Source of the DNA: Centroscyllium fabricii
Lineage: Eukaryota
Direction of reading: 5' to 3'
DNA: 64,000 bases
Assembly: GCA_051313645.2 (NCBI GenBank)
Contig: JBNRSN020000003.1
Location: 417,260,001-417,324,000 of the forward strand
Part shown: piece by piece, positions 211 through 52,349 of the stretch
How the letters are laid out: each line of letters opens with the position of its first letter
How positions within the stretch are numbered: the first letter of the stretch is position 1
The notes under the pieces: generated by a model
Databases searched by the model: none
The model's input: only the letters and a program-made list of their open reading frames with translations
Told to the model about the DNA's origin: nothing
Program-made: the position numbers and the translations under genes

Positions 211-470
211 GATAGCAAAATACCGCAGATGCTGGAAATCCGAAATAACAACAGAAAACGCTGGAAAAAAACTCAGCAGGCCAGGCAACATCCGTGGAGA
301 GAGAAATATAGAGTCGACGTTTCAGGTCGGGACCCTTTGTCAAGACTAAAGCATCCTCATTTCCTGGCTGTAGTCTTGACAAAGGGTCCTAACCCGAAAC
401 GTCGACTCTATATTTCTCTCCACGGATGTTGCCTGGCCTGCTGAGTTTTTTCCAGCATTCTCTGTTGTTA
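211..470. mobile_element. Penelope-like element remnant, family A, inverted pair of terminal repeats with two degenerate hammerhead motifs
   Basis: The arms around a short spacer (349-370) are reverse complements. Each arm reads AGTC-TTGACAA-AGGGT..ACC(C/T)-GAAACGTC-GACT (312-347 minus, 372-407 plus). The same family recurs at 1297, 33397, 38670, 50717 and 51756. Confidence 0.65.
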
Positions 471-881
471 CATGAAATCCTTCCCGGATGTGTCTCTCGG
501 TTGCTATACACCGAGGAAGCTCCTTCTGTTCTGTCTCAACAGCTCCCCCCCCCCATCCACCCAGCTTCCAGGGTACAGCTTCGGAGGAAACAGGAACCCA
601 CCTTTCACATCCCAGTGGGCCCTATTCAAAACCAGCTACCCTTCCAACCTCCTTCCATTACTCTTCACATGGAAGTTCCCCCCCCACCCATTATCCTATT
701 GCTGAAAGTGAAAACTATGCAAGATTCCAGCAACCCTGTAAAACTATTTACAATGTGAAGAAATTATAACTTCACTGGAAATAAAACTTCTCAAACTGTT
801 ACAGTAATTTTCAGATATTCCAGAACTTTTCATCGTTCCATTTGGCTTTATTCTTCAATGTACTGAGCCTATTCTGAATGA

Positions 882-1055
882 TGTGGAGGTGCCGGTGTTG
901 GACTGGGGTGGACAAATGTAAGAAGTCACACAACACCAGGTTATAGTCCAACAGTTTTATTTGAAATCACAAGCATTCGGAGCGCTGCTCCGAATGCTTG
1001 TGATTTCAAATAAAGCTGTTGGACTATAACCTGGTGTTGTGTGACTTCTTACGTT
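882..1055. mobile_element. Penelope-like element remnant, family B, folded into a 66-bp-arm palindrome
   Basis: Near-identical to the copies at 21971 and 26984. Hairpin spans 918-1052. Flanked by TATTCTGAATGA (870-881) and TATTCCGAATGA (1056-1067). Confidence 0.65.
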
Positions 1056-1296
1056 TATTCCGAATGAAGTGTAGGCCCAGTAAACGCTCCCTCTCCCCGC
1101 AGGCAGGAACCTTCAGACTGCAGCCAAATCCAACCCCTTTGCACTTGAGCAAAACCCAAGCCAGCGGGTGGGACGGCTCAACAACAGAAAACTCCGAAGA
1201 AGTTTACGTTCAAAGCATGAACTGAGGCGACAGTCGCCGCACCCATTCTCTTTACACACACGAGGAGTCCTGCAAACAACTCGTGGCTAAATTAGC

Positions 1297-1600
1297 GATA
1301 GCAAAATACTGCGGATGCTGGAAATCTGAAATAACAACAGAAAAACGCTGGAGAAACTCAGCAAGCCAGGCAGCATCGGTGGAGAGAGGAGCAGAGTTGA
1401 CGTTTCAGGTCGATGACCTTTCTTCAGAACTGGAGAAGCCAGGAGGGGGGATAGATTTAAAGCTTGTAGGGGCTGAGGAAATGGGGAGGGGCTGAAAGAA
1501 CAAAGGATAGATCAGCGACAGGCTGGAAGGTGGGGGGAGATAAGAGACATTAGGAGAAATTGAGGAAAACAGGATGGCTCTGGATAGGTGTGAACGGCTT
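1297..1600 (-). mobile_element. Penelope-like element remnant, family A
   Basis: Shares GATAGCAAAATAC..GCTGGAAATC.GAAATAACAACAG with 211 and 38670, and contains an intact hammerhead motif. The right boundary is approximate. Confidence 0.6.
1395..1431 (-). ncRNA. Minimal type I hammerhead ribozyme motif (intact core)
   Basis: Minus strand reads AGUU-CUGAAGA-A-AGGUC-AUC-GACCU-GAAA-CGUC-AACU: stem I, CUGANGA, stem II, GAAA, palindromic stem III and a GUC cleavage triplet. Confidence 0.7.
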
Positions 1601-2500
1601 TAGCAGAGTAAAGAATTATTCCTTCAATTTCAACTGTGAAGCCGTCTCCAACATCGAACGGAGTATGCCTGCTGACATTGCAAACTACGAGTTATAACAG
1701 ATCGGGATGGAGTTTATGAGAGGGATTGAGTCCCAATTTTAGAAACATTATTTGTGCTGATGGTGCCAGGGTTGACAACCAACTTACACAACCGAGCATG
1801 TCGCTTGAATCAATGTGCTATTTCTCCATCTGACCTGAACCGAGGTGATTTGGGTTTTCGCTCGGTGCGTCTTAAGGCCCTGTCACACCTAGACGATTAA
1901 GCCAGCGTATGCAAATTTGGCTGATACGCCGGTTTACGTCGGATACGTGATGGGAACGTTATGCATACGTTAAGAGCACTTTGGCATACGCTGGCCATAA
2001 GTTGTATACGTCGTATAAGTCGTGATTTTTTGTGCATGCACAAAAAATCACGACGTATCAATGTTACAATTTATACGTTCCACATACGCTGGCCATACGT
2101 TGCAGGCACGTTAGGCGATCGGTGACACACGTTAGTCATACGTCAAAAGACGTCGAGATAATGACTAGCGTTCCAGGAACTTATGTCTAACCTATGCGTA
2201 ACGTGCTTTGAACTTATGTGTAACGTATCTCCAACATATTTGACGTCTTCCGGTCGACCACAGAACTTACTGAACGTGTTTCTAACTTACAGCTCCTGAG
2301 GAACATCTTAAAAAGCCTTTTCTCCCCACTCACTCTCTCTCTCTCTCTCCCCACTATCTCTCTCTCCCTCGCTCTCTCTCCCGGTCTCTCCCCACTCATT
2401 CACCCTCTCTCTCTCTCTCCATTATATTATTGTACCTTTTCCAAAGTGTATGAATTTATTATTGTTAATTATTGTTTATGATTTAAATATTAAAACAATA

Positions 2501-2660
2501 CAAACATCAAGAGTTTGCTCAACTTTTATTAAATAACTTAACATGATAACATCAACAAACATCAAGAGTTTGCTCAACTTTTATTAAATAACTTAACATG
2601 ATAACAGGAACAAACATCAAGAGTTTGCTCAACTTTTATTAAATAATTTAACATGATAAC
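2501..2660. repeat. Three 55-bp-period direct repeats in the 3' UTR of the MADF gene
   Basis: CAAACATCAAGAGTTTGCTCAACTTTTATTAAATAA.TTAACATGATAAC at 2501, 2556 and 2611. Each copy gives AATAAA on the minus strand. Confidence 0.85.
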
Positions 2661-2765
2661 AATGGTCTAAAAACGTACAGACAAAATGGTTAAAACAATC
2701 TTACTGAAACATCAAAACTATATACAAAATTGCACAAACATGTCAAAAACATTGTCACCTTTTAT

Positions 2766-3503
2766 TCAGTACTCTCCTCTGATGGTGGAAGTGTGTTCAG
2801 CTCCCCACACGGGCTGCTTGCAGCATTTGGGACCACTGGAAAAGCTGAATCCTGAGATATTAAACATCTCAGTATTGTCCAAGGTGCTTTGGCTCTTGCT
2901 CAGTACCTGGTCAGCCGACCCTATAGCAGCAGATGAAGAGGCGGGGCTTGGCTGCTGCGTCATCAGAGGAGGAGGAGGATACTGGAACACATGCTGAGGG
3001 GCAGGAGGCATCATATTGTACTGTGGCATCATCTGCTGGTACTGCGGCTGTTGCATGTACGGTCCACAGACTGACGCAGCTGGTGCCGTGTGTCTCCACC
3101 TGTGGGTATCTTGCTGGAACATCGACGACGCCGTGGGGGTGTAGGTAGCTGGTGCTGAAGCTGATCGCACGGAGATGGGGGTCTCCACCAGCAGCTCAGT
3201 GAAGATGGTGCTGATGCGCAACCTTGCCTCCTGGAATTTGTCGTTGGGCATGCTGACCAGGGTGTCACGCACGTAGTTGGCGAAGGCTGAGGTGGTTGTG
3301 ATGGGCTGAGGCTGCGCCAGATTTCTGAGGATCTCCCCAGTCTCCTGCACCCTTCTATGGATTGACTGCAGCTGCTCATCGTCCTGGGCACGCTTCCCCC
3401 TGGGGACAGGGGAGGGTGTGCTGTCGTCAACCAACACCATCTCTGCACAGGCAGCCTCGCCAGCCTCGAGGTCCCCGCTGTGTGCTGCAATGGTTTCCTT
3501 TAC
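2766..3503 (-). CDS. Transposon MADF/Myb-SANT-like protein, exon 2 (BESS-like helix, P/Q/S-rich tail)
   Basis: Acceptor TTGCAG|GTA at 3504/3503, phase 0, open to a stop at 2766. TSAFANYVRDTLVSMPNDKFQEARLRISTIFTELL resembles a BESS motif. Confidence 0.7.
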   Translation of the reverse strand, partial: VKETIAAHSGDLEAGEAACAEMVLVDDSTPSPVPRGKRAQDDEQLQSIHRRVQETGEILRNLAQPQPITTTSAFANYVRDTLVSMPNDKFQEARLRISTIFTELLVETPISVRSASAPATYTPTASSMFQQDTHRWRHTAPAASVCGPYMQQPQYQQMMPQYNMMPPAPQHVFQYPPPPLMTQQPSPASSSAAIGSADQVLSKSQSTLDNTEMFNISGFSFSSGPKCCKQPVWGAEHTSTIRGEY

Positions 3504-3615
3504 CTGCAATTATGACAAATGATTAGTAAAATACAAAGCAAAAATACGAGGCAAAGTACAGTAAAACTAATATAAATAAATATTATTATGGATATTAATA
3601 TGTGTTTATACTTAC

Positions 3616-4149
3616 ACTGTGGACGGGCTCAGGACGATGGCGGACCACAGTCGTGAGGAAGCCGAACTTTGCCTTCACCCACTGCTCCCTCTCTGTCAGT
3701 TCCTGGGCGCCATCACCGCTTTTCTTCTTGTGGAGACGGGTGTGGGTGTCTCGCAGGGACTTGAACCACCCTTGAAGGTGCTCCACAGTCTTCCCCATGT
3801 CCTTTGCCTGATCCTCCCAGAGCTTTCCCTTCTTGTCCACCCTCCGATAGTCCGTCTTTTTAATGTCCCAGAGGATGGCGTTATCTGAAAGGAAATCCAA
3901 CATCTGCCGCTCCTCCTCAGCAGCAAGACAATACTGTGTCTTCTTGGCCCTCTTCTTCGCAATGGTTGGCTGAGAGGATGTGGAGGCCACGGACGCAGCC
4001 ACAGACGATGCCCGAGAGGCGTTGGAAGCAGCATCCTCTCCGTCAGAGGGTGAGCGTGATGGGAAGGGTGTGGGTGCTGGATCCTCCATGCATCCACGCC
4101 CACGGCCACGAAACTTCCTGGCAGCATTCCTGGAACTTTTCCTAGGCAT
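3616..4149 (-). CDS. Transposon MADF/Myb-SANT-like DNA-binding protein, exon 1
   Basis: ATG at 4149 (MPRKSSR...), basic NLS-like KKRAKK, and a MADF-like segment LDFLSDNAILWD..DY..K.KLWED..W.KSLRD...SG......W....FL. Donor AGT|GTAAGT at 3616/3615. Spliced product is about 423 aa. Confidence 0.8.
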
Positions 4150-4634
4150 TTGTACAGACTTGTCAACAGAACAGACTTCTGAAAGCAGATTTTCATGTAG
4201 AACTGGAATCAGTGTGGGTGGGTGGAGCTGAGCTGCACTTAAAAGTCTAGTGGTATGATTTGAATCGTCCAATGACAGCCTTTGAGTAGGCTACCCCACC
4301 TGATCGTCGGCGATATGCTGGCGCCTGCTAAGCATACGTTATGCATACGTCCAGTACGTTAGACTATCGTTAGGTATACGTTATGCATACGTCCAAAACG
4401 CTAAGAACACGTTGGTACAATTTTCAATAAAGATCGCGGAACGTTCTATGTACGTTACTAATACGTTACGCATACGTTATGTATACGTCCAATACGCTAT
4501 GAATACGCTACTATACAACAAAAATTGAACAAAGTGTCGAAAGTTCAGCGTTTTAGCCTCATTTGCATAGGCTGGCTAAAACGTCTAGGTGTGACAGGGC
4601 CTTACAGGCATATCCTGTACATGTCAAGGATCAT

Positions 4635-7600
4635 TGTTTGGGAGTGGGTAAAGAGCAATATGTTTGGGAGTGGGTAAAGAGCAATATGTTTGGGAGTGGG
4701 TAAAGAGCAATATGTTTGGGAGTGGGTAAAGAACAATATGTTTGGTGGTGGGTAAAGAGCAATATGTTTGGGAGTGGGTAAAGAGCAATATGTTTGGGAG
4801 TGGGTAAAGAACAATATGTTTGGGAGTGGGTAAAGAGCAATATGTTTGGGAGTGGGTAAAGAACAATATGTTTGGTGGTGGGTAAAGAACAATATGTTTG
4901 GGAGTGGGTAAAGAACAATAAGTTTGGGAGTGTGTAAAGGACAATATGTTTGGTGGTGGGTAAAGAACAATATGTTTGGGAGTGGGTAAAGAGCAATATG
5001 TTTGGGAGTGGGTAAAGAACAATATGTTTGGTGGTGGGTAAAGAACAATATGTTTGGGAGTGGGTAAAGAACAATAAGTTTGGGAGTGTGTAAAGGACAA
5101 TATGTTTGGTGGTGGGTAAAGAACAATATGTTTGGGAGTGGGTAAAGAACAATAAGTTTGGGAGTGTGTAAAGGACAATATGTTTGGTGGTGGGTAAAGA
5201 ACAATATGTTTGGGAGTGGGTAAAGAGCAATATGTTTGGGAGTGGGTAAAGAGCAATATGTTTGGTGGTGGGTAAAGAACAATATGTTTGGGAGTGGGTA
5301 AAGAACAATATGTTTGGGAGTGGGTAAAGAACAATATGTTTGGGAGTGGGTAAAGAACAATATGTTTGGGAGTGGGTAAAGAACAATATGTTTGGTGGTG
5401 GGTAAAGAACAATATGTTTGGGAGTGGGTAAAGAACAATATGTTTGGGAGTGGGTAAAGAACAATATGTTTGGGAGTGGGTAAAGAGCAATATGTTTGGT
5501 GGTGGGTAAAGAACAATATGTTTGGTGGTGGGTAAAGAACAATATGTTTGGGAGTGGGTAAAGAACAATATGTTTGGTGGTGGGTAAAGAGCAATATGTT
5601 TGGTGGTGGGTAAAGAGCAATATGTTTGGTGGTGGGTAAAGAACAATATGTTTGGGAGTGGGTAAAGAACAATATGTTTGGGAGTGGGTAAAGAACAATA
5701 TGTTTGGTGGTGGGTAAAGAACAATATGTTTGGGAGTGGGTAAAGAGCAATATGTTTGGGGGTGGGTAAAGAGCAATATGTTTGGTGGTGGGTAAAGAGC
5801 AATATGTTTGGTGGTGGGTAAAGAGCAATATGTTTGGGAGTGGGTAAAGAGCAATATGTTTGGGAGTGGGTAAAGAGCAATACGTTTGGGAGTGGGTAAA
5901 GAGCAATATGTTTGGGAGTGGGTAAAGAGCAATATGTTTGGGAGTGGGTAAAGAGCAATATGTTTGGTGGTGGGTAAAGAGCAACATGTTTGGTGGTGGG
6001 TAAAGGACAATATGTTTGGGAGTGGGTAAAGAACAATATGTTTGGTGGTGGGTAAAGAACAATATGTTTGGTGGTGGGTAAAGAACAATATGTTTGGCGG
6101 TGGGTAAAGAACAATATGTTTGGTGGTGGGTAAAGAACAATATGTTTGGTGGTGGGTAAAGAACAATATGTTGGGAGTGGGTAAAGAACAATATGTTTGG
6201 GAGTGGGTAAAGAACAATATGTTTGGTGGTGGGTAAAGAACAATATGTTTGGTGGTGGGTAAAGAACAATATGTTTGGGAGTGGGTAAAGAGCAATATGT
6301 TTGGGAGTGGGTAAAGAGCAATATGTTTGGGAGTGGGTAAAGAGCAATATGTTTGGGAGTGGGTAAAGAACAATATGTTTGGTAGTGGGTAAAGAACAAT
6401 ATGTTTGGTGGTGGGTAAAGAACAATATGTTTGGGAGTGGGTAAAGAGTAATATGTTTGGTGGTGGGTAAAGAACAATATGTTTGGGAGTGGGTAAAGAA
6501 CAATATGTTTGTTGGTGGGTAAAGAACAATATGTTTGGTGGTGGGTAAAGAACAATATGTTTGGTGGTGGGTAAAGAACAATATGTTTGGTGGTGGGTAA
6601 AGAACAATATGTTTGGGAGTGGGTAAAGAACAATATGTTTGGGAGTGGGTAAAGAGCAATATGTTTGGGAGTGGGTAAAGAGCAATATATTTGGGAGTGG
6701 GTAAAGAACAATATGTTTGGTGGTGGGTAAAGAACAATATGTTTGGGAGTGGGTAAAGAGCAATATGTTTGGTGGTGGGTAAAGAACAATATGTTTGGGA
6801 GTGGGTAAAGAACAATAAGTTTGGGAGTGTGTAAAGGACAATATGTTTGGTGGTGGGTAAAGAACAATATGTTTGGGAGAGGGTAAAGAGCAATATGTTT
6901 GGGAGTGGGTAAAGAGCAATATGTTTGGTGGTGGGTAAAGAACAATATGTTTGGGAGTGGGTAAAGAACAATATGTTTGGGAGTGGGTAAAGAACAATAT
7001 GTTTGGGAGTGGGTAAAGAACAATATGTTTGGGAGTGGGTAAAGAACAATATGTTTGGTGGTGGGTAAAGAACAATATGTTTGGGAGTGGGTAAAGAACA
7101 ATATGTTTGGGAGTGGGTAAAGAACAATATGTTTGGGAGTGGGTAAAGAGCAATATGTTTGGTGGTGGGTAAAGAACAATATGTTTGGTGGTGGGTAAAG
7201 AACAATATGTTTGGGAGTGGGTAAAGAACAATATGTTTGGGAGTGGGTAAAGAACAATATGTTTGGTGGTGGGTAAAGAACAATATGTTTGGGGGTGGGT
7301 AAAGAACAATATGTTTGGGAGTGGGTAAAGAGCAATATGTTTGGGAGTGGGTAAAGAGCAATATGTTTGGGAGTGGGTAAAGAGCAATATGTTTGGGAGT
7401 GGGTAAAGAACAATATGTTTGGGAGTGGGTAAAGAACAATATGTTTGGTAGTGGGTAAAGAACAATATGTTTGGTGGTGGGTAAAGAACAATATGTTTGG
7501 GAGTGGGTAAAGAACAATATGTTTGGTGGTGGGTAAAGAACAATATGTTTGGGAGTGGGTAAAGAACAATATGTTTGTTGGTGGGTAAAGAACAATATGT

Positions 7601-10600
7601 TTGGTGGTGGGTAAAGAACAATATGTTTGGTGGTGGGTAAAGAACAATATGTTTGGTGGTGGGTAAAGAACAATATGTTTGGGAGTGGGTAAAGAACAAT
7701 ATGTTTGAGAGTGGGTAAAGAGCAATATGTTTGGGAGTGGGTAAAGAGCAATATGTTTGGGAGTGGGTAAAGAACAATATGTTTGGTGGTGGGTAAAGAA
7801 CAATATGTTTGGGAGTGGGTAAAGAACAATATGTTTGGTGGTGGGTAAAGAACGATATGTTTGGGAGTGGGTAAAGAGCAATATGTTTGGTGGTGGGTAA
7901 AGAACAATATGTTTGGTGGTGGGTAAAGAACAATATGTTTGGTGGTGGGTAAAGAACAATATGTTTGGGAGTGGGTAAAGAACAATATGTTTGGTGGTGG
8001 GTAAAGAACAATATGTTTGGGAGTGGGTAAAGAACAATATGTTTGGTGGTGGGTAAAGAGCAATATGTTTGGGAGTGGGTAAAGGACAATATGTTTGGGA
8101 GTGGGTAAAGAGCAACATGTTTGGGAGTGGGTAAAGAGCAATATGTTTGGGAGTGGGTAAAGAGCAATATGTTTGGGAGTGGGTAAAGAACAATATGTTT
8201 GGGAGTGGGTAAAGAACAATATGTTTGGTAGTGGGTAAAGAACAATATGTTTGGGAGAGGGTAAAGAACAATATGTTTGGTGGTGGGTAAAGAACAATAT
8301 GTTTGGGAGTGGGTAAAGAACAATATGTTTGGTGGTGGGTAAAGAACAATATGTTTGGTGGTGGGTAAAGAACAATATGTTTGGTGGTGGGTAAAGAGCA
8401 ATATGTTTGGGAGTGGGTAAAGAGCAATATGTTTGGGAGTGGGTAAAGAACAATATGTTTGGTGGTGGGTAAAGAGCAATATGTTTGGGAGTGGGTAAAG
8501 AGCAATATGTTTGGGAGTGGGAAAAGAACAATATGTTTGGGAGTGGGTAAAGAGCAATATGTTTGGGAGTGGGTAAAGAACAATATGTTTGGTGGTGGGT
8601 AAAGAACAATATGTTTGGGAGTGGGTAAAGAACAATATGTTTGGGAGTGGGTAAAGAGCAATATGTTTGGGAGTGGGTAAAGAGCAATATGTTTGGTAGT
8701 GGGTAAAGAACAATATGTTTGGTAGTGGGTAAAGAGCAATATGTTTGGTAGTGGGTAAAGAACAATATGTTTGGGAGTGGGTAAAGAGCAATATGTTTGG
8801 GAGTGGGTAAAGAGCAATATGTTTGTGAGTGGGTAAAGAGCAATATGTTTGGGAGTGGGTAAAGAGCAATATGTTTGGTGGTGGGTAAAGAGCAATATGT
8901 TTGGTGGTGGGTAAAGAGCAATATGTTTGGGAGTGGATAAAGAATAATATGTTTGGGAGTGGGTAAAGAACAATATGTTTGGGAGTGGGTAAAGAACAAT
9001 ATGTTTGGGAGTGGGTAAAGAGCAATATGTTTGGGAGTGGGTAAAGAGCAATATGTTTGGTGGTGGGTAAAGAGCAATATGTTTGGGAGTGGGTAAAGAA
9101 CAATATGTTTGGGAGTGGGTAAAGAGCAATATGTTTGGTGGTGGGTAAAGAGCAATATGTTTGGGAGTGGGTAAAGAACAATATGTTTGGGAGTGGGTAA
9201 AGAACAATATGTTTGGGAGTGGGTAAAGAACAATATGTTTGGGAGTGGGTAAAGAGCAATATGTTTGGGAGTGGGTAAAGAACAATATGTTTGTGAGTGG
9301 GTAAAGAGCAATATGTTTGGGAGTGGGTAAAGAGCAATATGTTTGGGAGTGGGTAAAGAGCAATATGTTTGGGAGTGGGTAAAGAACAATATGTTTGGGA
9401 GTGGGTAAAGAACAATATGTTTGGGAGTGGGTAAAGAGGAATATGTTTGGGAGTGGGTAAAGAACAATATGTTTGGTGGTGGGTAAAGAGCAATATGTTT
9501 GGTGGTGGGTAAAGAGCAATATGTTTGGGAGTGGGTAAAGAGCAATATGTTTGGGAGTGGGTAAAGAACAATATGTTTGTGAGTGGGTAAAGAGCAATAT
9601 GTTTGGTGATGGGTAAAGAGCAATATGTTTGGTGGTGGGTAAAGAACAATATGTTTGGGAGTGGGTAAAGAGCAATATGTTTGGGAGTGGGTAAAGAACA
9701 ATATGTTTGGGAGTGGGTAAAGAACAATATGTTTGGTGGTGGGTAAAGAGCAATATGTTTGGTGGTGGGTAAAGAGCAATATGTTTGGTGGTGGGTAAAG
9801 AACAATATGTTTGGGAGTGGGTAAAGAGCAATATGTTTAGGAGTGGGTAAAGAACAATATGTTTGGGAGTGGGTAAAGAACAATATGTTTGGTGGTGGGT
9901 AAAGAGCAATATGTTTGGTGGTGGGTAAAGAGCAATATGTTTGGTGGTGGGTAAAGAACAATATGTTTGGGAGTGGGTAAAGAGCAATATGTTTGGGAGT
10001 GGGTAAAGAACAATATGTTTGGTGGTGGGTAAAGAACAATATGTTTGGGAGTGGGTAAAGAACAATATGTTTGGGAGTGGGTATAGAACAATATGTTTGG
10101 TGGTGGGTAAAGAACAATATGTTTGGGAGTGGGTAAAGGACAATATGTTTGGGAGTGGGTAAAGAACAATATGTTTGGGAGTGGGTAAAGAACAATATGT
10201 TTGGGAGTGGGTAAAGAACAATATGTTTGGTGGTGGGTAAAGAACAATATGTTTGGGAGTGGGTAAAGAGCAATATGTTTGGGAGTGGGTAAAGAACAAT
10301 ATGTTTGGGAGTGGGTAAAGAACAATATGTTTGGTGGTGGGTAAAGAGCAATATGTTTGGGAGTGGGTAAAGGACAATATGTTTGGGAGTGGGTAAAGAA
10401 CAATATGTTTGGTGGTGGGTAAAGAACAATATGTTTGGTGGTGGGTAAAGAGCAATATGTTTGGGAGTGGGTAAAGAGCAATATGTTTGGGAGTGGGTAA
10501 AGAACAATATGTTTGGTGGTGGGTAAAGAACAATATGTTTGGGAGTGGGTAAAGAGCAATATGTTTGGTGGTGGGTAAAGAACAATATGTTTGGTGGTGG

Positions 10601-13600
10601 GTAAAGAACAATATGTTTGGGAGTGGGTAAAGAGCAATATGTTTGGTGGTGGGTAAAGAACAATATGTTTGGGAGTGGGTAAAGAGCAATATGTTTGGGA
10701 GTGGGTAAAGAGCAATATGTTTGGGAGTGGGTAAAGAGCAATATGTTTGGTGGTGGGTAAAGAACAATATGTTTGGTGGTGGGTAAATAACAATATGTTT
10801 GGGAGTGGGTAAAGAGCAATATGTTTGGTGCTGGGTAAAGAACAATATGTTTGGGAGTGGGTAAAGAGCAATATGTTTGGTGGTGGGTAAAGAACAATAT
10901 GTTTGGGAGTGGGTAAAGAGCAATATGTTTGGGAGTGGGTAAAGAGCAATATGTTTGGGAGTGGGTAAAGAGCAATATGTTTGGTGGTGGGTAAAGAACA
11001 ATATGTTTGGGAGTGGGTAAAGAGCAATATGTTTGGTGTTGGGTAAAGAACAATATGTTTGGGAGTGGGTAAAGAGCAATATGTTTGGGAGTGGGTAAAG
11101 AGCAATATGTTTGGTAGTGTGTAAAGAACAATATGTTTGAGAGTGGGTAAAGAACAATATGTTTGGGAGTGGGTAAAGAACAATATGTTTGGTAGTGGGT
11201 AAAGAACAATATGTTTGGTAGTGGGTAAAGAACAATATGTTTGGGAGTGGGTAAAGAACAATATGTTTGGTGGTGGGTAAAGGACAATATGTTTGGGAGT
11301 GGGTCAAGGACAATATGTTTGGTGGTGGGTAAAGAACAATATGTTTGGGAGTGGGTAAAGAGCAATATGTTTGGTGGTGGGTAAAGAACAATATGTTTGG
11401 TGGTGGGTAAAGAGCAATATGTTTGGGAGTGGGTAAAGAGCAATATGTTTGGGAGTGGGTAAAGAGCAATATGTTTGGTGGTGGGTAAAGAACAATATGT
11501 TTGGGAGTGGGTAAAGAGCAATATGTTTGGGAGTGGGTAAAGAGCAATATGTTTGGTAGTGTGTAAAGAACAATATGTTTGAGAGTGGGTAAAGAACAAT
11601 ATGTTTGGGAGTGGGTAAAGAACAATATGTTTGGTAGTGGGTAAAGAACAATATGTTTGGTAGTGGGTAAAGAACAATATGTTTGGGAGTGGGTAAAGAA
11701 CAATATGTTTGGTGGTGGGTAAAGAGCAATATGTTTGGGAGTGGGTAAAGAGCAATATGTTTGGGAATGGGTAAAGAACAATATGTTTGGTGGTGGGTAA
11801 AGAACAATATGTTTGGTGATGGGTAAAGAACAATATGTTTGGGAGTGGTTAAAGAACAATATGTTTGGGAGTGGGTAAAGAACAATATGTTTGGTGGTGG
11901 GTAAAGAACAATATGTTTGGTGGTGGGTAAAGAACAATATGTTTGGTGGTGGATAAAGAGCAATATGTTTGGGAGTGGGTAAAGAGCAATATGTTTGGGA
12001 GTGGGTAAAGAACAATATGTTTGGGAGTGGGTAAAGAACAATATGTTTGGTGGTGGGTAAAGAACAATATGTTTGGTGGTGGGTAAAGAACAATATGTTT
12101 GGGAGTGGGTAAAGAACAATATGTTTGGGAGTGGGTAAAGAACAATATGTTTGGTGGTGGGTAAAGAACAATATGTTTGGTGGTGGGTAAAGAACAATAT
12201 GTTTGGGAGTGGGTAAAGAACAATATGTTTGGGAGTGGGTAAAGAACAATATGTTTGGGAGTGGGTAAAGAACAATATGTTTGGTGGTGGGTAAAGAACA
12301 ATATGTTTGGTGGTGGGTAAAGAGCAATATGTTTGGGAGTGGGTAAAGAACAATATGTTTGGTGGTGGGTAAAGAACAATATGTTTGGGAGTGGGTAAAG
12401 AGCAATATGTTTGAGAGTGGGTAAAGAGCAATATGTTTGGGAGTGGGTAAAGAACAATATGTTTGGTGGTGGGTAAAGAGCAATATGTTTGGGAGTGGGT
12501 AAAGAACAATATGTTTGGTGGTGGGTAAAGAGCAATATGTTTGAGAGTGGGTAAAGAACAATATGTTTGGGAGTGGGTAAAGAACAATATGTTTGGGAGT
12601 GGGTAAAGAACAATATGTTTGGTAGTGGGTAAAGAACAATATGTTTGGGGGTGGGTAAAGAGCAATATGTTTGGGAGTGGGTACAGAATATGTTTGGGAG
12701 TTGGTAAAGAACAATATGTTTGGGAGTGGGTAAAGAACAATATGTTTGGGAGTGGGTAAAGAGCAATATGTTTGGGAGTGGGTAAAGAACAATATGTTTG
12801 GGAGTGGGTAAAGAATATGTTTGGGAGTGGGTAAAGAACAATATGTTTGGTAGTGGGTAAAGAATATGTTTAGGAGTGGGTAAAGAACAATATGTTTGGG
12901 AGTGGGTAAAGAGCAATATGTTTGAGAGTGGGTAAAGAGCAATATGTTTGGGAGTGGGTAAAGTGCAATATGTTTGTGAGTGGGTAAAGAGCAATATGTT
13001 TGGGATTGGGTAAAGAACAATATGTTTGATGGTGGGTAAAGAGCAATATGTTTGGGAGTGGGTAAAGAACAATATCTTTGGGAGTGGGTAAAGAACAATA
13101 TGTTTGGTGGTGGGTAAAGAACAATATGTTTGGTAGTGGGTAAAGAACAATATGTTTGGTAGTGGGTAAAGAACAATATGTCTGGTAGTGGGTAAAGAAC
13201 AATATGTTTGGTAGTGGGTAAAGAACAATATGTTTGGGAGTGGGTAAAGAACAATATCTTTGGTGGTGGGTAAAGAGCAATATGTTTGAGAGTGGGTAAA
13301 GAACAATATGTTTGGTGGTGGGTAAAGAACAATATGTTTGGGAGTGGGTAAAGAACAATATGTTTGGTGGTGGGTAAAGAACAATATGTTTGGTAGTGGG
13401 TAAAGAACAATATGTTTGGGAGTGGGTAAAGAGCAATATGTTTGGGTGTGGGTAAAGAGCAATATATTTGGTCGTGGGTACAGAATATGTTTGGGAGTTG
13501 GTAAAGAACAATATGTTTGGGAGTGGGTAAAGAACAATATGTTTGGGAATGGGTAAAGAGCAATATGTTTGGGAGTGGGTAAAGAACAATATGTTTGGGA

Positions 13601-14246
13601 GTGGGTAAAGAATATGTTTGGGAGTGGGTAAAGAACAATATGTTTGGTAGTGGGTAAAGAATATGTTTGGGAGTGGGTAAAGAACAATATGTTTGGGAGT
13701 GGGTAAAGAAGAATATGTTTGGGAGTGGGTAAAGAACAATATGTTTGGGAGTGGGTAAAGAACAATATGTTTGGCAGTGGATAAAGAAGAATATGTTTGG
13801 GAGTGGGTAAAGAGCAATATGTTTGGGAGTGGGTAAAGAAGAATATGTTTGGGAGTGGGTAAAGAGCAATATGTTTGGGAGTGGGTAAAGAACAATATGT
13901 TTGGGAGTGGGTAAAGAGCAATATGTTTGGGAGTGGGTAAAGAACAATATGTTTGGCAGTGGATAAAGAAGAATATGTTTGGTGGTGGGTAAAGAACAAT
14001 ATGTTTGGTGGTGGGTAAAGAGCAATATGTTTGGGAGTGGGTAAAGAGCAATATGTTTGGGAGTGGGTAAAGAACAATATGTTTGGGAGTGGGTAAAGAG
14101 CAATATGTTTGGGAGTGGGTAAAGAGCAATAGGGAGTGGGTAAAGAGCAATATGTTTGGGAGTGGGTAAAGAGCAATAGGGAGTGGGTAAAGAGCAATAT
14201 GTTTGGGAGTGGGTAAAGAGCAATAGGGAGTGGGTAAAGAGCAATA
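4635..14246. repeat. Large tandem array, 26-bp unit TGTTTGG(GA/TG)GTGGGTAAAGA(A/G)CAATA, about 370 copies
   Basis: The tandem repetition is directly visible. Copy number is array length divided by 26. Confidence 0.97.
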
Positions 14247-14647
14247 GGGTGGCCCGGTGGCTCAGTGGTTAGCACTGCTGTCTCACAGCACTGGAGACCC
14301 GGGTTCAAATCCGGCCTGTGGTACTATCTGTGTGGAGTTTGCACATTCTCCCCGTGTCTGCGTGGGTTTCCTCTGGTTTCCTCCCACAGTCCAAAGATGT
14401 GCGGGTTAGGTTGATTGGCCGGGATAAATTGACCCTTAGTGTTAGGGGGATTGAATATTTGGGGTTACGGGGATAGGGTGGGAGATGTGTCGGTGCAGGC
14501 TTGATCGTGATCGAGAGATATGGGGAGAGGGCAGGGGCGGGGTATTGGGTTTGGATGATCAGCCATGATCTCATTGAATGGCGGAGCAGGCTCGAAGGGC
14601 CAAATGGCCTACTCCTGCTCCTAGTTTCTATGTTTCTAGTTTCTATG
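14247..14647 (+). mobile_element. tRNA-derived V-SINE (HE1-like), long CR1 tail, inserted in the satellite
   Basis: A box TGGCTCAGTGG, B box GGTTCAAATCC, V-domain GTGGAGTTTGCACATTCTCCCCGTGTCTGCGTGGGTTTCC, and a TTTCTATG-type tail matching the 3' end of the CR1 at 53050. Confidence 0.9.
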
Positions 14648-14925
14648 TTTGGTGGTGGGTAAAGAACAATATGTTTGGTAGGTGGTGGGTAAAGAGCAAT
14701 ATGTTTGGTGGTGGGTAAAGAATATGTTTGGTGGTGGTTAAAGAACGATATGTTTGGTGGTGGGTAAAGAGCAATATGTTTGGTGGTGGGTAAAGAATAT
14801 GTTTGGTGGTGGGTAAAGAACAATATGTTTGGTGGTGGGTAAAGAGCAATATGTTTGGTGGTGGGTAAAGAATATGTTTGGTGGTGGGTAAAGAACAATA
14901 TGTTTGGGAGTGGTTAAAGAACAAT
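14645..14925. repeat. Continuation of the 26-bp array beyond the SINE
   Basis: Same unit, mostly the GGTGG variant, with several 23-bp deletion units. Confidence 0.93.
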
Positions 14926-21970: not shown

Positions 21971-22160
21971 TGCAAGAAGTCACACGACACCAGGTTATAG
22001 TCCAACAGTTTTATTTGAAATCACAAGCTTTCGGAGCGCTGCTCCTTCGTCAGGTGAAGTGTCGAGATTCATTTAAACATAGCATATATATATAGAGAGA
22101 GAACAATGTGATCTCTCCAACTGTTTCACATCATACCTCAGCTGAAGGACATCAAATCAA
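21971..22160 (-). mobile_element. Penelope-like remnant, family B, with 12-bp TSD
   Basis: Flanked by TCTAAATATTGA at 21959-21970 and 22161-22172. Homologous to the 882 and 26984 copies. Confidence 0.7.
22021..22057 (-). ncRNA. Minimal hammerhead ribozyme motif, family B
   Basis: Minus strand reads UCAC-CUGACGA-A-GGAGC-AGC-GCUCC-GAAA-GCUU-GUGA. Confidence 0.65.
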
Positions 22161-26983: not shown

Positions 26984-27138
26984 TGATGTGGAGGTGCCGG
27001 TGTTGGACTGGGGTGGACAAATGCAAGAAGTCACACAACACCAGGTTATAGTCCAACAGTTTTATTTTAAATCACAAGCTTTCGGAGCGTCTGCCCCTTC
27101 GTCAGGTGAAAGAGAAGCTGACTTAAAGAACGCACATA
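26984..27138 (-). mobile_element. Penelope-like remnant, family B, with 10-bp TSD
   Basis: Flanked by TGATTTGGCA at 26974-26983 and 27139-27148. Confidence 0.7.
27072..27109 (-). ncRNA. Minimal hammerhead ribozyme motif, family B
   Basis: Minus strand reads UCAC-CUGACGA-A-GGGGC-AGAC-GCUCC-GAAA-GCUU-GUGA; stem II is retained with a G-U pair. Confidence 0.62.
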
Positions 27139-33396: not shown

Positions 33397-33433
33397 AGTT
33401 CTGACGAAAGGTCTTTGACCTGAAACGTTAACT
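33397..33433 (+). ncRNA. Minimal type I hammerhead ribozyme motif (intact core)
   Basis: AGUU-CUGACGA-A-AGGUC-UUU-GACCU-GAAA-CGUU-AACU. Confidence 0.7.
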
Positions 33434-33496
33434 CTGTTTCTCTCTCCACCGATGCTGCCTGGCCTGCTGAGTATTTCCAGCGTTTTCTGTTGTTAT
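33397..33496 (+). mobile_element. 100-bp Penelope-like family A insertion with 13-bp TSD
   Basis: Flanked by TTTGGAAAGTGGC at 33384-33396 and 33497-33509. The insert begins exactly at hammerhead stem I. Confidence 0.75.
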
Positions 33497-33719
33497 TTTG
33501 GAAAGTGGCTATCTGGTGAAGTCCAGTTGCCCAGGGTAATTACTGCAATGAGCCGAACGCGTGTGGTATGTTTGAGATTGATTTGAAGGATAACAATGAG
33601 ACTAACTAATTATGGCACTGCGCCTTTAAGTCTGTGTAAAAAAAAAATGTTGAACTCTTAAAATGTGTTTTGTTTTTGCCATGGAAGCTGGGCAGTCTCC
33701 CTTTAAATGTGAGAGCCCT

Positions 33720-36270: not shown

Positions 36271-38669
36271 GTACCGAGACATGTTAAAAAACACAAATCA
36301 AAATGTCAACTGGAAGCGGCAGCAAAACAGAGGGCGACGCCACTGCATGCAGTAAACAAGGCAGAATAGCAGAATTTTACAATAATTAAGTGGAATAGTC
36401 GGGGTTGGACTGATACACCCATAAGTAAAGTTACACGTTACCGCCATTCTTATCTGAACCCATGTGCGCGAATTAAATACTTTTTTTTAACGAGAAGTAC
36501 TTCAGAATAGATACCATATTTGTTAACCTATTGAAACCGAAGCAAAGTGGGAGCATTTCTTTCAGATGACGAAATGGGCTGGAATAATTTATGCAGGGTC
36601 TTTTCTTCAAATGTTTTATGCAATGAGATATCAGGGTTTAAGATGTATTAACAGCAGAGCCTTATTACAATGCTCAGGAGTGTAGCGTCAAAGCAGAGTG
36701 AGAGGATTATCTAGAATCAAAATGACTCCGAATACTTAATACAAGCACCCAATTAAATTGTTTTATGCAAGGCCGAAGTTGCTTGTAACCAGCTACTGGA
36801 GGCACTTAGTACATATATTAAAAAAATCAAAACATTGGCACTTAACATGCCGAAAGTAGAATACAATAGAAACAATACAACGGGGCTAATATTCTAATTA
36901 TGCTTAATTGTGTTCTAATTGTGTTAAATAAAATGTAATGCCAGCAACAATGATTCGTGCAGTTAAATATAATCAAATGAACAGCCTCTAGTAGGGGAAA
37001 AGTCTATTAGAATAACCTGGGAAAACACAGAACACACTCCCAATGCATTGGGACGAAAATGAAAGAAATGTCGGTGTGTTAGCAGGTCGAAAGCAGGAAC
37101 CAAGGTGCGGTTAGCCAGTTTAATTGTATTGGGGCTGCTTTATGGAATTGCATGGACTTGAGGTATTCCTTAACTATTGTCTGAATTTAACATGGGGCGA
37201 ATGCAGAGCGACCTGTGCTGTTTCTGAGCCTGAACGATTCAAGCTGTAACTCTTCCAGCTATTGGTATTGGGTACGAACGGGGTGAGGAAATAAACCCCC
37301 TCTCAACCGGGGGCGGGTCAAACACGGGGGAGTTCGGCACAAGTTGCTATTGCCCATTGCAGCGTTTCAAAATTGTTTTCCGTATCTTTTATTGCAACGC
37401 AATGAAATACTAGATGTTCCCGCATCAATAGCCGAATAGTGGGAAGCCCAGGACCTTTCCAAAGTTGGGGAACACCTAAATCCACGAATGAGAATGTGGA
37501 AAAATGATCACCTAGTTGACAAAATCCACACCCAGTGCGAATTAAGTGAACTCTTACAGTAAGATGATACCAGCAATAAACCTATCTGAAAGATCAGGAC
37601 TATTTCACCGAGATTTCACACGGAACAGCCAAATTGGCCCGTGTGCCATCTCCTGCAGAACACTCTTTTATTTACATGGTTCATTTAAATAGTTAATTTT
37701 TTAATGATGCGGTTTTGCACCGAGCGTAATGTTTTATGCATGATCTTCTCATTAAAGGACCGCGCCACGCAATTTAAAGCAACTCGCCAAATTAAAACGC
37801 CGGTGTTTATTTCAGCATGCATGGTCTTTTACAGCAGAAACAGAATGAGCCAAAGATGTTTGACATGTTTCACGAAACAGAATAAATCCACAGTGCTTAT
37901 ACCTTTTTCTGGGAAATGGAAAGGAATCCCATTTATTGTCAAGTTAAATACAGTGCGTGCAATGAAAGCTAACGACAATAAGGCCATTAAATTATCACAT
38001 TCTTTAGCGTAAAAAGTTAAAGTTGGTGGGATATTGTGAAGAGCTCGGGCATTTTACATATATTAGATTTCTAACTGTTTTGATGAAAAACTAAATATCT
38101 TGCTTCGTTAGTTAACGAAAGTGCATTGAAAAGGTTCACAAGCCGAATCTGTACTTTAAACTAAAAGCTCATTTCGCAGTGGGCCCCACCAAGTGCTGCA
38201 ACGTTGAACTCTAAACAGGAGCACCTCATGATCGAAATAACGACTGATTGTAAACCAACTGAACGTCTTTTTGCGTGGAATTGCGTTGCAATAATAATTC
38301 GATTTTTTAAATAGTAAATGCTGATAAACAGAATGACCCAATCAGACATGTTCTTATTTAGGCGGCACGGTGGAGCTGCTTTGAGCAGTATTGAGCACCG
38401 GCTGTGGCTGTCCCACTTCAGGACAGTCAGAACTTCCACACATCAGGGCGAAATTACAGACGATTGTGTATGATTTTTTTCAATACAAAAAATGACATTT
38501 CAGACAGACAATTAAAAGCAAAGACAGTGAGTGTAGCATTCTGAAGATCGCCTCCACCAGACGGATCACAGTGAATTCTGTTACAAGGTTGTGTAAATCA
38601 CAAGTGGTGAACTCCACACCACCGCTGATAGTAACAGCATCTTTAGCGAGCAATACACGATTCTGTGAC

Positions 38670-38858
38670 GATAGCAAAATACCGCAGACGCTGGAAATCC
38701 GAAATAACAACAGACAATGCTGGGAACACTCAGCAGGCCAGACAGCATCGGTGGAGAGAGAAACAGAGTTAACGTTTTGGGTCGACTCGATATTTCTTTC
38801 CACGGATGTTGCCTGGCCTGCTAAGTTTTTCCAGCATTGTCTGTTGTTATTTCGGATC
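38670..38858. mobile_element. Penelope-like family A inverted pair, ribozyme core deleted
   Basis: The arms are reverse-complementary and join at GTTAACGTTTTGGGTCGACTC. Confidence 0.6.
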
Positions 38859-39499: not shown

Positions 39500-39992
39500 T
39501 TGGAGAGGGTGCAGATGAGATTCACCAGGATGTTACCTGGGCTGGAGCGCTTCAGCTATGAAGAAAGACTGGACAGGCTGGGGTTGTTTTCCTTCGAGCA
39601 GTGAAGGCTGAGGGGGAACCTGATTGAGGTGTACAAAATTATGAGGGGCATAGATAGGGTAGATAGAAAGGAACTTTTTCCCTTAGTAGAGGGGTCAATA
39701 ACAAGGGGGCATAGTTTCAAGGTAAGGGGCAGGAGGTTTAGAGGGGATTTGAGGAGGAACTTTTCCACCCAGAGGATGGTTGGAGTCTGGAACTCATTGC
39801 CTGAAAGGGTGGTCGAGGCAGGAACACTCACAACATTCAAGAAGCATTTAGATGAGCACTTGAAACGCTATAGCATACAAGGCTATGGACCAAATGCTGG
39901 AAAATGGGATTAGAATAGACAGGGCTTGATGGCTGGCGCAGACACGATGGGCTGAAGGGCCTCTTTCTGTGCTGTATAACTCGATGACTCTA
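39500..39992 (+). mobile_element. CR1-clade LINE 3' fragment
   Basis: YKIMRGIDRVDRKELFP..TRGHSFK..QRMVGVWNSLPERVVEA..FKKHLD plus a 3' UTR. Starts about 55 bp after the exon 3 donor. Confidence 0.9.
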
Positions 39993-47759: not shown

Positions 47760-48010
47760 CATCGAAATTACAACACGGAAACAGGCTGCTTGGTCAACTA
47801 GTCCTCCAAACGCCCAGTAGTCCTAATTACATGTGTCCACCTTGTTCCCATATTCTTTTCCTACCTAACCTATTCTTGAATGTTGACATGGTCTCTGATT
47901 CAGTCACTAACTGTAGTCGTGCATTCCACAGCCTCACACCCCTCTGTGCAGAAAAGTTCTCCTCATCTCTGTCCTAAATCTCTTACATTTAACCTAATCT
48001 CCTCTGTTCT
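47760..48010 (-). mobile_element. Old degenerate CR1-like 3' fragment
   Basis: GCATTCCACAGCCTCACACCCTCTGTGCAGAAAAGTTCTCCTCATCTCTGTCCTAAAT resembles 45545-45602. Confidence 0.5.
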
Positions 48011-49922: not shown

Positions 49923-50715
49923 AGAAACATAGAAGATAGGAGCAGGAGTCGGCCATTCGGCCCTTCGAGCCTGCTCTGCCATTCAATGAGATCATGGCTG
50001 ATCATCCAAACCCAGTACCCCGTCCCTGCCTTGTCCCCATATCCCTCGATCCCTATCGAACCTGCACCGACACATATCCCACCCTATCCCGTAACCCCAC
50101 ATATTTAATTCCCCCGAACAGTAAGGGTCAATTTTATCATGGCCAATCAACCTAACCCGCACATCTTTGGACTGTGGGAGGAAACCGGAGCACCCGGAGG
50201 AAATGGGCGGCACGGTGGCACAGTGGTTAGCACTGTTGCCTTACAGCACTGGAGACCCGGGTTCAAATCTGGCCTCGGGTGACTATCTGTATGGAGTTTG
50301 CACATTCTCCCCGTGTCTGCGTGGGTTTCCTCCGGGTGCTCCGGTTTCCGCCCACAGTCCAAAGATGTGCGGGTTAGGTTGATTGGCCGGGATAAATTGA
50401 CCCTTAGTGTTAGAGGGATTAAATATGTGGGGTTACAGGGAAACCGTGGGATATGTGTCGGTGCAGGCTCGATAGGGATATGGGGAGAGGGCAGGGGCGG
50501 GGTGCTGGGTTTGGATGATCAGCCATGATCTCATTGAATGGCGGAGCAGGCTCGAAGGGCCGAATGGCCTACTCCTGCTCCAATCTTCTATGAAACCCAT
50601 GCGGACATGGGGAGAATGTGCAAACTCCACACAGATAGTACCCGAGGCTGGATTTGAACCCGGGTCTCTAGTGCTGTAAGGCAACAGTGCTAACCACTAT
50701 GCCACTGTGCCACCC
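49923..50715 (-). mobile_element. V-SINE (long tail) interrupted by a second SINE
   Basis: The minus-strand copy runs 49923-50203 and resumes at 50593-50715. Confidence 0.85.
50205..50592 (+). mobile_element. Full-length V-SINE (long tail) nested in opposite orientation
   Basis: GGGCGGCACGGTGGCACAGTGG head through the CTTCTATG tail. GAAA appears at both junctions. Confidence 0.88.
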
Positions 50716-50716
50716 A

Positions 50717-50830
50717 AATGCTGGAAAAACTCAGCAGGCCAGGCAACATCCGTGGAGAGAAATATAGAGTCGACGTTTCGGGTTAGGACCCTTTATCAGG
50801 ACTAAAGCCAGGAAATGAAACAGGTAGGAA
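50717..50830 (-). mobile_element. Penelope-like family A remnant with mutated hammerhead (50768-50803)
   Basis: Minus strand reads AGUC-CUGAUAA-AGGGU-CCUA-ACCC-GAAA-CGUC-GACU. Near-identical to 361-460. Confidence 0.6.
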
Positions 50831-51755
50831 GGCCGGGGGAGCTGGGAGGGAACAAAAGGAAAGAGAAAACAAAAGAGAAAAGAGAACCAAAGAGAAAAGT
50901 CATTAAAAGGTATTCAAAATGAGACGAGATGTGGATGGGGCTGTGGACAGGAGACAGCTATAGATTAGGTGTGAAAAGGTTTGGAGTGGGGTTTGAACCC
51001 AGCACCTTCTGAACAATGCTCCCCCCATGCCCCCCTTCCCCCCCCACAAGGCGCACGGGCTTGCGGCGGCGCATCAATTGGGAGGTCCCACACCGGCCGC
51101 TCACAAGCTGTTGCCGCTGGAAGATACCACGTGTGCAAATTTAAAGGGACCGCGCCCGAAAAAAATAATATTTGAGGCAACATTGCTTCTGACTCAGAGG
51201 CGAAAATGCTAACACTAAACCACAGGGTTGCTCCTGTGGAGACTTCGTAATTCATAACAAGTTGAAATTAAATGTACAATAATCACTTTCAATAGTAGTT
51301 CCTATTGCATTTTGAAATGATCTCTTTATCTTCACAGACCTCTGTGACAATATTAAAGGGGAAGCCACCCCATGAAAAAAATGCTTAAACTCTTTTTGTT
51401 TTTGATTATAAACAAACTCACAATTCTGTGATATAAAATCTGTTGAAACACCTGATCTAGTTATGATGAAAATGTTGCGGGTTTGTTCTGGCTCTTATCT
51501 CTGCATCAAACAAAAGGTTTGTCCAAGGATATATTGGTGAAGACAGTACTCCTTTAATTGAGGCGATCACATTCGATGTTACAATAAACAGCTGGGCAGA
51601 ATGAGAGAGCACACAAATTATGCCATTATTAACTGCGTCACCCAAATAAAGGAAAACACTTTCATTCTTTAATATTTTTGGACGATTCCACAGAAATACT
51701 CTACTGGAGTTCCTGAAGATGCATAACTCTGATAATGAGTTTATGGACACATTGG

Positions 51756-51958
51756 ACAATAACAAAATACTGCAGATGCTGGAAATCCGAAATAACAACA
51801 GAGAATGCTGGAAAAACTCAGCAGTTCAGGCAACATCCATAAGAGAGAAATAGGAGTCAACATTTCGATAAAGGGAACGACCCCGACACATTGACTTTTA
51901 TTTCTCTCTTGTGGATGTTGCCTGAACTGCTGAGTTTTTCCAGCATTTTCTGTTGTTA
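51756..51958. mobile_element. Penelope-like family A inverted pair with 15-bp TSD
   Basis: Flanked by TTATGGACACATTGG (51741-51755) and TTATGGAAACATTGG (51959-51973). The arms are reverse-complementary. Confidence 0.65.
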
Positions 51959-52349
51959 TTATGGAAACATTGGCTTTTGTAAGCAGCTTGTTGCAATGGG
52001 ATGTGCAAAAGAAAGTCCTGGCTTTTTATTTTGGGGGGTGGGAGCATATCATTTTTACGGTAATATGGATTTTGTGTTTTCACAGCAGTAGGGTTTAAAA
52101 TAAATGTAGAGATCAAAATTACTGCTTCTTGTACTTTTAACATTTTATAAATGATACCTCTTTACTTTATTCCAAATGTTGAAGAGGCGAATTGTGGCTT
52201 GTGTCTTTGATGGAACTTAAAAATAGTCACATTGCAATGTTACAACCACCAAAAAGGCACTAATAATTCCTGTCTGTAATTTAATGGAACAATGCTTAGA
52301 TCAAGTTCTAACTTGGTAAAACTATAAGATCCAGCAGATTGAAACAATA

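Follow-up and report, generated by a model that had tools for sequence, protein, structure and literature searches.

The window, meaning the whole 64,000-nucleotide stretch of Centroscyllium fabricii DNA analysed here (assembly GCA_051313645.2, contig JBNRSN020000003.1, positions 417,260,001 to 417,324,000 of the forward strand), contains a LIM-homeobox gene and nine short insertions, six belonging to sequence family A and the other three to family B (Table 1). The insertion at 33397 lies on the sense strand of the gene, about 0.9 kb upstream of the first Met (34359); three other copies lie in the introns, none with an intact hammerhead motif. All nine insertions align, at 83-95% identity, with 3' ends of Penelope-like elements (PLEs) located in the same genome. 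A sequence-only reading of the window had described nine short copies of two unrelated families. The nine copies are all present, at 100-320 bp, and the families show no DNA cross-match in blastn, but they are not unrelated as proteins, since their parent products are 32% identical over 618 aa. The copies had also been said to lack any reverse transcriptase (RT) or GIY-YIG reading frame. This was borne out by tblastn with three parent frames as queries, which found no RT or nuclease coding sequence in the window; the sole matches were to the first ~56 codons of one frame, open through the hammerhead. Four of the nine insertions are head-to-head fold-backs, a structure absent from the sequence-only reading. 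In one of these (38668..38857) the two arms disagree at 13 of their 77 common sites, one arm being A1-like and the other A2-like.

Table 1. Insertions and hammerhead motifs in the window (TSD, target-site duplication; identities are to parent elements in the same genome).
Feature	Positions	Strand	TSD	Remarks
Family A (A2) head-to-head fold-back	209..468	tailed arm -, tailless arm +	195-208 / 469-482, 14 bp, 2 mismatches	
Hammerhead motif, minimal	312-347	-		U3-A8 core variant
Hammerhead motif, minimal	372-407	+		U3-A8 core variant; predicted fully masked by fold-back
Family B fold-back	882..1055		870-881 / 1056-1067, 12 bp, 1 mismatch	centre is hammerhead stem II loop; no complete ribozyme; GAAA-to-GAAT change common to both arms
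Family A (A1) 5'-truncated 3' end, tailed	1296..1615	-	none found	90% identity to L063
Hammerhead, minimal type I	1395-1431	-		C3-G8 core, ACGU, GUC triplet
Family B 5'-truncated 3' end, tailless	21971..22160	-	21959-21970 / 22161-22172, exact 12 bp	93% identity to L060
Hammerhead, minimal type I	22021-22057	-		AGCU, CUU triplet
Family B 5'-truncated 3' end, tailed	26984..27138	-	26974-26983 / 27139-27148, exact 10 bp	93% identity to L058; reaches as far as start codon of parent
Hammerhead, minimal type I	27072-27109	-		AGCU, CUU triplet
Family A (A1) tailless stump, 100 bp	33397..33496	+	33384-33396 / 33497-33509, exact 13 bp	95% identity to L208; first base is first base of stem I
Hammerhead, minimal type I	33397-33433	+		ACGU, GUU triplet
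Family A fold-back	38668..38857		none significant	LIM-homeobox intron; no complete hammerhead
Family A (A2) copy	50716..50977	-	none	83% identity to L204; 3' end adjoins another repeat; motif at 50768-50803 with C3-A8 mismatch
Family A (A2) fold-back	51756..51958		51741-51755 / 51959-51973, 15 bp, 1 mismatch	no complete hammerhead

Each of the TSDs in Table 1 was equalled by only 0-1.3% of random junction pairs (n=1500); for the exact 10-bp repeat the automated score was 9, at the edge of the search, and the tenth base was taken from the sequence. The remaining three of the nine copies gave no significant TSD in the junction-pair test. The size range of 10-15 bp claimed previously thus stands, whereas the number of duplicated sites is six rather than five.

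The four type I motifs had been named in the sequence-only reading, and all read as described there, on the same strands. They share a 4-bp stem I, the CUGANGA box, one bulged A, a 5-bp stem II, GAA, a palindromic ACGU or AGCU and a cleavage triplet. A descriptor permitting either C3-G8 or U3-A8 found six motifs in the window, the additional two being the U3-A8 motifs of the first fold-back, which had been missed. These two were provisionally regarded as decayed, an idea dropped when U3-A8 proved common in family A. A first, narrower descriptor, which caught three of the four type I motifs, had no match when the window was simulated 100 times under a Markov-2 model. An Rfam scan of the window returned no hammerhead match at E≤5; because stem III is missing, this result was not weighed against the motifs. 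When the monomer copies were folded in context, the predicted pairing of stem I was 0.00-0.03 in three of four, while that at 22021 kept stem I with a probability of ~0.5; in the fold-back context stems I and II were both predicted to be lost. On these models, the lone hammerheads of the window would not cut. Lunse et al. are said to have described cleavage by small PLE hammerheads as dimers.

Parents of both families were found in the same genome. That of family B (L058) is complete, consisting of a hammerhead, an 890-aa open frame starting from Met, a second hammerhead and a tail. The frame encodes, in this order, an RT (Pfam RVT_1, E 5.7e-10), a Cys linker and a GIY-YIG-type nuclease. The family A parents have the same layout but are frameshifted; their RT motifs lie in broken frames (RVT_1 E 8.7e-5, score 22.8, under the Pfam cut-off). 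Pfam GIY-YIG gave no match at E≤0.1 with either parent directly. The C-terminal domains are, however, 45% (B) and 33% (A) identical to the stretch of a relative (P0012) that holds an above-cut-off GIY-YIG match. In 11 of the 20 family A loci fetched, the repeat end flanks, on both sides, coding sequence that extends to the C-terminal domain, and a motif is present on each side of the ORF in L058 (B) and in L202, L205 and L208 (A), the pseudo-LTR arrangement of partial tandems. Since no family A locus has one unbroken frame running from a start through the RT to the stop, family A may be inactive now. Ahead of the nuclease motif lies a Cys linker, C-x4-C-xx-C, whose C8, C13 and C16 are the same in all 43 rows of the alignment, both parents included. 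Judged by this linker, families A and B are likely of the Neptune type, although the linker is not exclusive to Neptune, CX2-5CxxC being described for the Nematis clade too. The nearest protein relatives of family B are from sharks, and PDB sequence searches gave weak RT matches only. Four sets of assembled contigs, compared with L058 for evidence of RNA, contain sequence related to it, with cover rising toward the 3' end; transcript starts and ends are not readable from contigs. The earlier proposal that the copies are truncated PLE ends is thereby supported: the genome has RT/nuclease-coding parents whose ends bear the same hammerhead.

Family A motifs show compensatory changes in stem I, in stem II and in the C3-G8 pair, in agreement with the stem I/II covariation sought across genomic copies. 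In an alignment of 59 of 62 distinct motifs (three irregular ones were left out), 92% of cells are paired and two-sided changes occur in 48 cells versus 19.7 after shuffling; the copies are related, so that the signal reflects a few lineage events. Family B changes, seen by inspection only, affect N7, loop 2 and one A-U/G-U pair. The U3-A8 core occurs in 27 of the 79 registered family A motifs (36 of 115 were not registered). A tree built from the 16 usable loci out of 32 groups the U3-A8 rows in none of 200 bootstrap replicates. This tree does not establish two origins of U3-A8: the 16 rows need three changes, but well-supported branches force only one.

The genome was sampled as 120 evenly spaced 10-kb stretches (1.2 Mb). 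The final descriptor found 27 intact motifs in this sample against 0.2 expected per 1.2 Mb, which extrapolates to ~160,000 genome-wide. Cover climbs toward the 3' end of the elements. The 3' ends fall into two clusters per family, separated by ~34 nt in family A and ~36 nt in family B, the interval corresponding to the PLE tail; 33 of 76 sampled ends are tailed. The 5' ends of 75 copies are scattered over a range that starts upstream of -200 and continues past the motif, some lying in the parent ORF, and just one coincides with the cleavage site. Among 29 TSD-bounded head-to-head pairs, every one has exactly one tailed arm; their TSD matches span 10-18 bp (10-15 bp in 26).

With 27 intact motifs in 1.2 Mb where 0.2 were expected, chance matches are ruled out. 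A related idea, that the host keeps them for processing LIM-homeobox transcripts, might be suggested by the position of the 33397 copy on the sense strand upstream of the first Met and by the three intronic copies. However, the window copies each resemble dispersed members of their family at 83-95%, and the intronic copies have no intact motif, so that chance or host retention can hardly be credited. The sequence-only reading had offered retrozyme-like non-autonomous units as its other option. In this scheme the stumps would be non-LTR retrozymes, amplified via self-cleaved circular RNA and inserted by PLE proteins in trans. They do resemble retrozymes in their type I hammerhead, lack of coding capacity, length of 100-320 bp and large TSDs, and the literature derives retrozymes from PLE repeats and reports them in one chondrichthyan genome. 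But retrozymes are defined, in the published accounts consulted, as head-to-tail arrays every unit of which holds a motif, and no such array was found in the window (Tandem Repeats Finder gave no motif-holding array) or in the 1.2-Mb sample, where two same-strand neighbour pairs within 1 kb, neither an array, occur among 76 ends. Stump length and 5' end vary freely, even running into the parent ORF, with no fixed unit length. This option is therefore not supported, and we consider it extremely unlikely.

A subset of the copies could instead represent a minimal unit of SINE-like character, starting with the hammerhead and propagated through a short RNA of its own. The 33397..33496 stump starts exactly at stem I, and 6 of 75 copies start, like it, within -5 to +7 of stem I, a count that is approximate because in fold-backs the extension of 5' ends can run too far. 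In a first pass, alignment starts also piled up at the hammerhead. Most of this peak proved artefactual, produced by subfamilies with the motif in common and different sequence upstream of it, and the starts spread out once extension was run against all copies; such a unit is very unlikely.

We conclude, with a probability of roughly 0.93, that each of the nine inserts is a 3' end, truncated on its 5' side, from one of two abundant, likely Neptune-type PLE families with RT/nuclease-coding parents in the same genome, that target-primed reverse transcription likely produced the inserts by halting early, and that their lone hammerheads are predicted not to cut. Parents, identities, TSDs, the two 3' ends and the scattered 5' ends were read directly from the DNA; the mechanism is modelled on in vitro work with an Anolis PLE, a Poseidon-clade element of another species (PMC11167929). 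By analogy, the element's protein would bind its own RNA near the repeat-ORF junction and nick both DNA strands, 10-15 bp apart. Copying would begin inside the RNA at either of two sites ~35 nt apart, and the two start sites would therefore yield tailed or tailless ends. Priming by both nicked strands would give a head-to-head fold-back with one arm tailed and the other tailless. Short stumps would still hold the hammerhead because it starts only 90-135 nt upstream of the start sites. The ribozyme itself probably matters only in tandem transcripts of parents, as a dimer or with protein help. More tentatively, and at somewhat below even odds, every head-to-head insertion may combine copying from the far start site on one of the nicked strands with copying from the near site on the other (29/29), usually from one source RNA and sometimes from two, as a dimeric protein would; on the same footing, C3-G8 may have switched to U3-A8 in two family A lineages, so that the core would be under selection for cleavage in a vertebrate Neptune element.

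As such, the nine inserts are ordinary: two unnamed shark-like PLE families leaving short stumps. A single vertebrate genome with some 160,000 minimal hammerheads still intact, and with numerous fold-backs bounded by TSDs, on the other hand, allows a counting test of the two-start-site insertion model, which has to date been demonstrated in vitro for a single lizard element. If the more tentative reading is true, a six-figure record of Penelope insertions lets the unsolved second-strand step be read. The natural C3-G8/U3-A8 pair also provides ready variants for asking about in vivo cutting by weak ribozymes.

A literature search of main texts found by title no paper on shark PLE families, and no name for families A and B. 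The abstract, results and discussion of Cervera and de la Pena 2014 (PMC4209133) name no shark. The minimal hammerheads of metazoan PLEs described there share with ours a stem I of 4-5 bp, a bulged base before stem II, the palindromic remnant of stem III, the terminal-repeat position and an occurrence mostly as single dispersed copies from truncated elements; the U3-A8 core is also known from Schistosoma, whose stem II has 7-8 bp rather than 5. Motif numbers given for coelacanth (~4,000) and Xenopus (~9,000) are far below the ~160,000 extrapolated here, though with different descriptors. Non-LTR retrozymes (PMC7229834; bioRxiv 10.64898/2026.07.22.740005) are likewise short, non-coding, PLE-related and equipped with a type I hammerhead, but are described as fixed-unit head-to-tail arrays expressed as circular RNA, whereas the stumps are single or head-to-head and variable in length. 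In PAc, a PLE of the Poseidon clade from Anolis carolinensis, the tail is delimited by a pair of neighbouring internal start sites, as it would be here, and both strands are nicked and extended in vitro; its hammerhead near the repeat-ORF junction is protein-assisted and dispensable for insertion in vitro (PMC11167929). Copying of PAc starts 111-118 nt into the ORF, whereas the family B tail stops at the start codon, with the motif wholly upstream. Endonuclease-bearing Neptune PLEs (PMC8557442, PMC3846280) have an RT followed by a C-terminal GIY-YIG-type nuclease and the CX2-5CxxC linker, and endonuclease-bearing PLEs in these accounts show partial tandems, strong 5' truncation, an adjacent inverted 5'-truncated copy, TSDs and a 30-40 bp tail that is frequently confined to one end, all as in families A and B. 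TSDs are mostly 10-15 bp here and 8-10 bp in the rotifer examples, and the one-tail rule, unlike in those Neptune-clade descriptions, is counted here (29/29). The PLE layout found in this genome matches the published descriptions.

Genomic matches of both repeat families extend 5' into coding sequence. At the family B locus L058, a partial tandem, a hammerhead and a tail ending at the start codon are followed by an open frame that runs for 890 aa from Met; beyond it come an untranslated region and another hammerhead and tail. The frame contains a reverse transcriptase (RT) domain (E 5.7e-10); Pfam gives no direct match for its C-terminal domain, which shares 45% identity with the part of a relative where an above-cut-off GIY-YIG match lies. 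In family A the motif flanks the coding region on both sides at loci such as L202, L205 and L208, an unbroken single frame is absent from all loci fetched, and the C-terminal domain shows 33% identity to the same relative. Across 618 aa the proteins of A and B share 32% identity, and the nearest named relatives of the family B protein are shark proteins (89%, 85% and 80% identity). C-x4-C-xx-C precedes the nuclease in both; a linker of the CX2-5CxxC type at this position is described in passages of PMC8557442 and PMC3846280 as a mark of the Neptune and Nematis clades of Penelope-like elements (PLEs). Family B subfamilies (L058, L060, L062, L151) have the hammerhead-to-tail stretch in common and differ in the upstream untranslated region; since they agree in the last 125 nt and diverge upstream, this is the conserved part of the family.

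The window itself is devoid of the parents' RT or nuclease coding sequence, and blastn assigned six of its nine copies to family A and the other three to family B, the two families giving no match to each other. Target-site duplications (TSDs) have the proposed size of 10-15 bp and flank six of the nine insertions rather than five, each of a quality that no more than 1.3% of 1500 randomly drawn junction pairs reached; none was found at the other three. The four minimal hammerheads claimed earlier were all recovered in place, each with a stem I of 4 bp, CUGANGA, a bulged A, a stem II of 5 bp, GAA, a palindromic ACGU/AGCU and a NUH triplet. The total rises to six when the descriptor also permits U3-A8, a variant published for Schistosoma (PMC4209133, in part).

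Positions of features in the window and at genomic loci beyond it (L numbers)
Feature	Location	Strand	Detail
Additional hammerhead motif	312-347	-	U3-A8 descriptor
Additional hammerhead motif	372-407	+	U3-A8 descriptor
Fold-back joined in stem II loop	882-1055
Fold-backs with divergent arms	L022:1472-2198; window 38668-38857
Two open frames	2766-4290	-
Open frame with MADF/Myb-SANT domain	3598-4290	-	E 4e-7
26-bp satellite	4635-14246; 14644-14925		371 copies, 92% match
Dispersed repeat breaking satellite	~14246-14640
LINE-like RT repeat fragments	30914-31279; 39506-39992; 53450-53938
LIM-homeobox gene	34359-63001	+
LIM-homeobox coding stretches	~34359; ~36100; ~39087; ~55486; ~62711	+
21-bp minisatellite	59059-59575		24.6 copies
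GC-rich repeat, fragment-bearing	L058:6090-6500; L081:1960-2400; L152; L062; L143
GC-rich repeat, empty site	L036; window 58561-58947

Copy number was estimated from 120 stretches of 10 kb taken at even steps along ten large contigs (1.2 Mb), against a genome size of 7.2 Gb. In this sample 41 of the 3' ends belong to family A and 35 to family B, which scales to about 2 x 10^5 per family genome-wide. With the descriptor that permits U3-A8 it also held 27 intact motifs versus 0.2 expected from Markov simulations; extrapolated to the genome, this gives some 160,000 motifs (Poisson range 107,000-236,000, the true range being wider because copies cluster and small contigs lie outside the sample). 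Coverage of the element climbs toward the 3' end. The 3' ends form two clusters, about 34 nt (A) or 36 nt (B) apart, 33 of 76 being tailed, and the interval between them is the 30-40 bp tail described for PLEs (PMC8557442, PMC3846280, in part). In the Anolis element, a Poseidon-clade PLE, the account in PMC11167929 places the tail between two internal reverse-transcription start sites. In a first pass the 5' ends seemed to accumulate at the hammerhead, but most of this peak vanished when subfamilies differing in their upstream sequence were taken into account; in 75 copies clear of stretch edges, 5' ends fell at stem I in six and at the cleavage site in one, the remainder being broadly scattered.

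Among 115 family A motifs, 36 failed to register. The 79 others have C-G (40), U-A (27) or mixed (12) residues at positions 3-8, mostly A-U (53) or G-C (15) at pair 10.1-11.1, and mostly U-A (59) or C-G (11) at the inner stem I pair. U3-A8 occurs in both family A subfamilies; that it arose twice is not proved. Covariation, proposed earlier as a check, was evident when 59 of the 62 distinct motifs were aligned: 92% of cells are paired, and two-sided changes number 48, versus 19.7 after shuffling and no more than 3 in slid controls, counts that reflect a few lineage events and are non-independent. The stumps are predicted to be inert passengers, because in published accounts minimal monomers are uncleaved and dimers cleave at a low level, because the Anolis hammerhead is described as protein-dependent (and dispensable for insertion in vitro; PMC11167929), and because folding predictions for four monomer copies keep stem II stable in all and lose stem I in three, both stems being lost in a fold-back.

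Head-to-head fold-backs account for four of the nine window insertions. A survey of the window and loci L002-L194, counting only pairs bounded by a TSD match, yielded 29 (13 in the even sample, 3 in the window, 13 at targeted loci). In every one of the 29 a single arm is tailed, the partner being tailless or shorter. Four close pairs without TSD were excluded, two one-tailed and two untailed (one of the latter clipped by a stretch edge); wider pairs without TSD are omitted from the count. In published PLE descriptions the tail often sits at one end only (PMC8557442, PMC3846280, in part). We favour a model in which both nicked strands would prime, at the two start sites, giving a head-to-head pair, since in vitro the Anolis protein is reported to nick and extend both strands, and a dimeric form is predicted for it (PMC11167929, in part). 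One published explanation is instead self-priming on an antisense template. One window fold-back has its centre in the hammerhead's stem II loop, a position suggestive of snap-back at this hairpin; in most other pairs the junction lies elsewhere. In 16 of the 23 pairs sharing at least 40 sites, the arms resemble one another more than nine tenths of other copies do, a likeness that could also stem from subsequent gene conversion between the arms. In two fold-backs the arms diverge by 17% and resemble different subfamilies; each may be an insertion from two templates or the product of two separate events.

In one sublineage of a GC-rich, roughly 400-bp repeat that is MITE-like in appearance only, a tailless family B fragment of 40 nt is present along with a short duplication; this seems to be a minimal PLE insertion amplified as a passenger. 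The site is empty in other copies, that of the window among them. At L143 and L176 the repeat terminates directly after the fragment, and mobilisation in trans via that end could be involved. The window also spans a gene whose LIM and homeodomains were confirmed by Pfam, presumably LHX2 judging from the protein termini, and contains a strand-skewed satellite. A MADF/Myb-SANT domain also occurs in the DNA-binding gene of Harbinger-type transposons.

Literature searches, judged by title, returned no paper on either family. The insertions had been read as truncated PLE ends or retrozyme-like units. The first holds, the nine copies being 83-95% identical to their parents. Retrozymes are distinguished by head-to-tail arrays of hammerhead-bearing units, of which none was seen in the window or the 1.2-Mb even sample; by the features examined here, the inserts are instead truncated ends of endonuclease-bearing PLEs.
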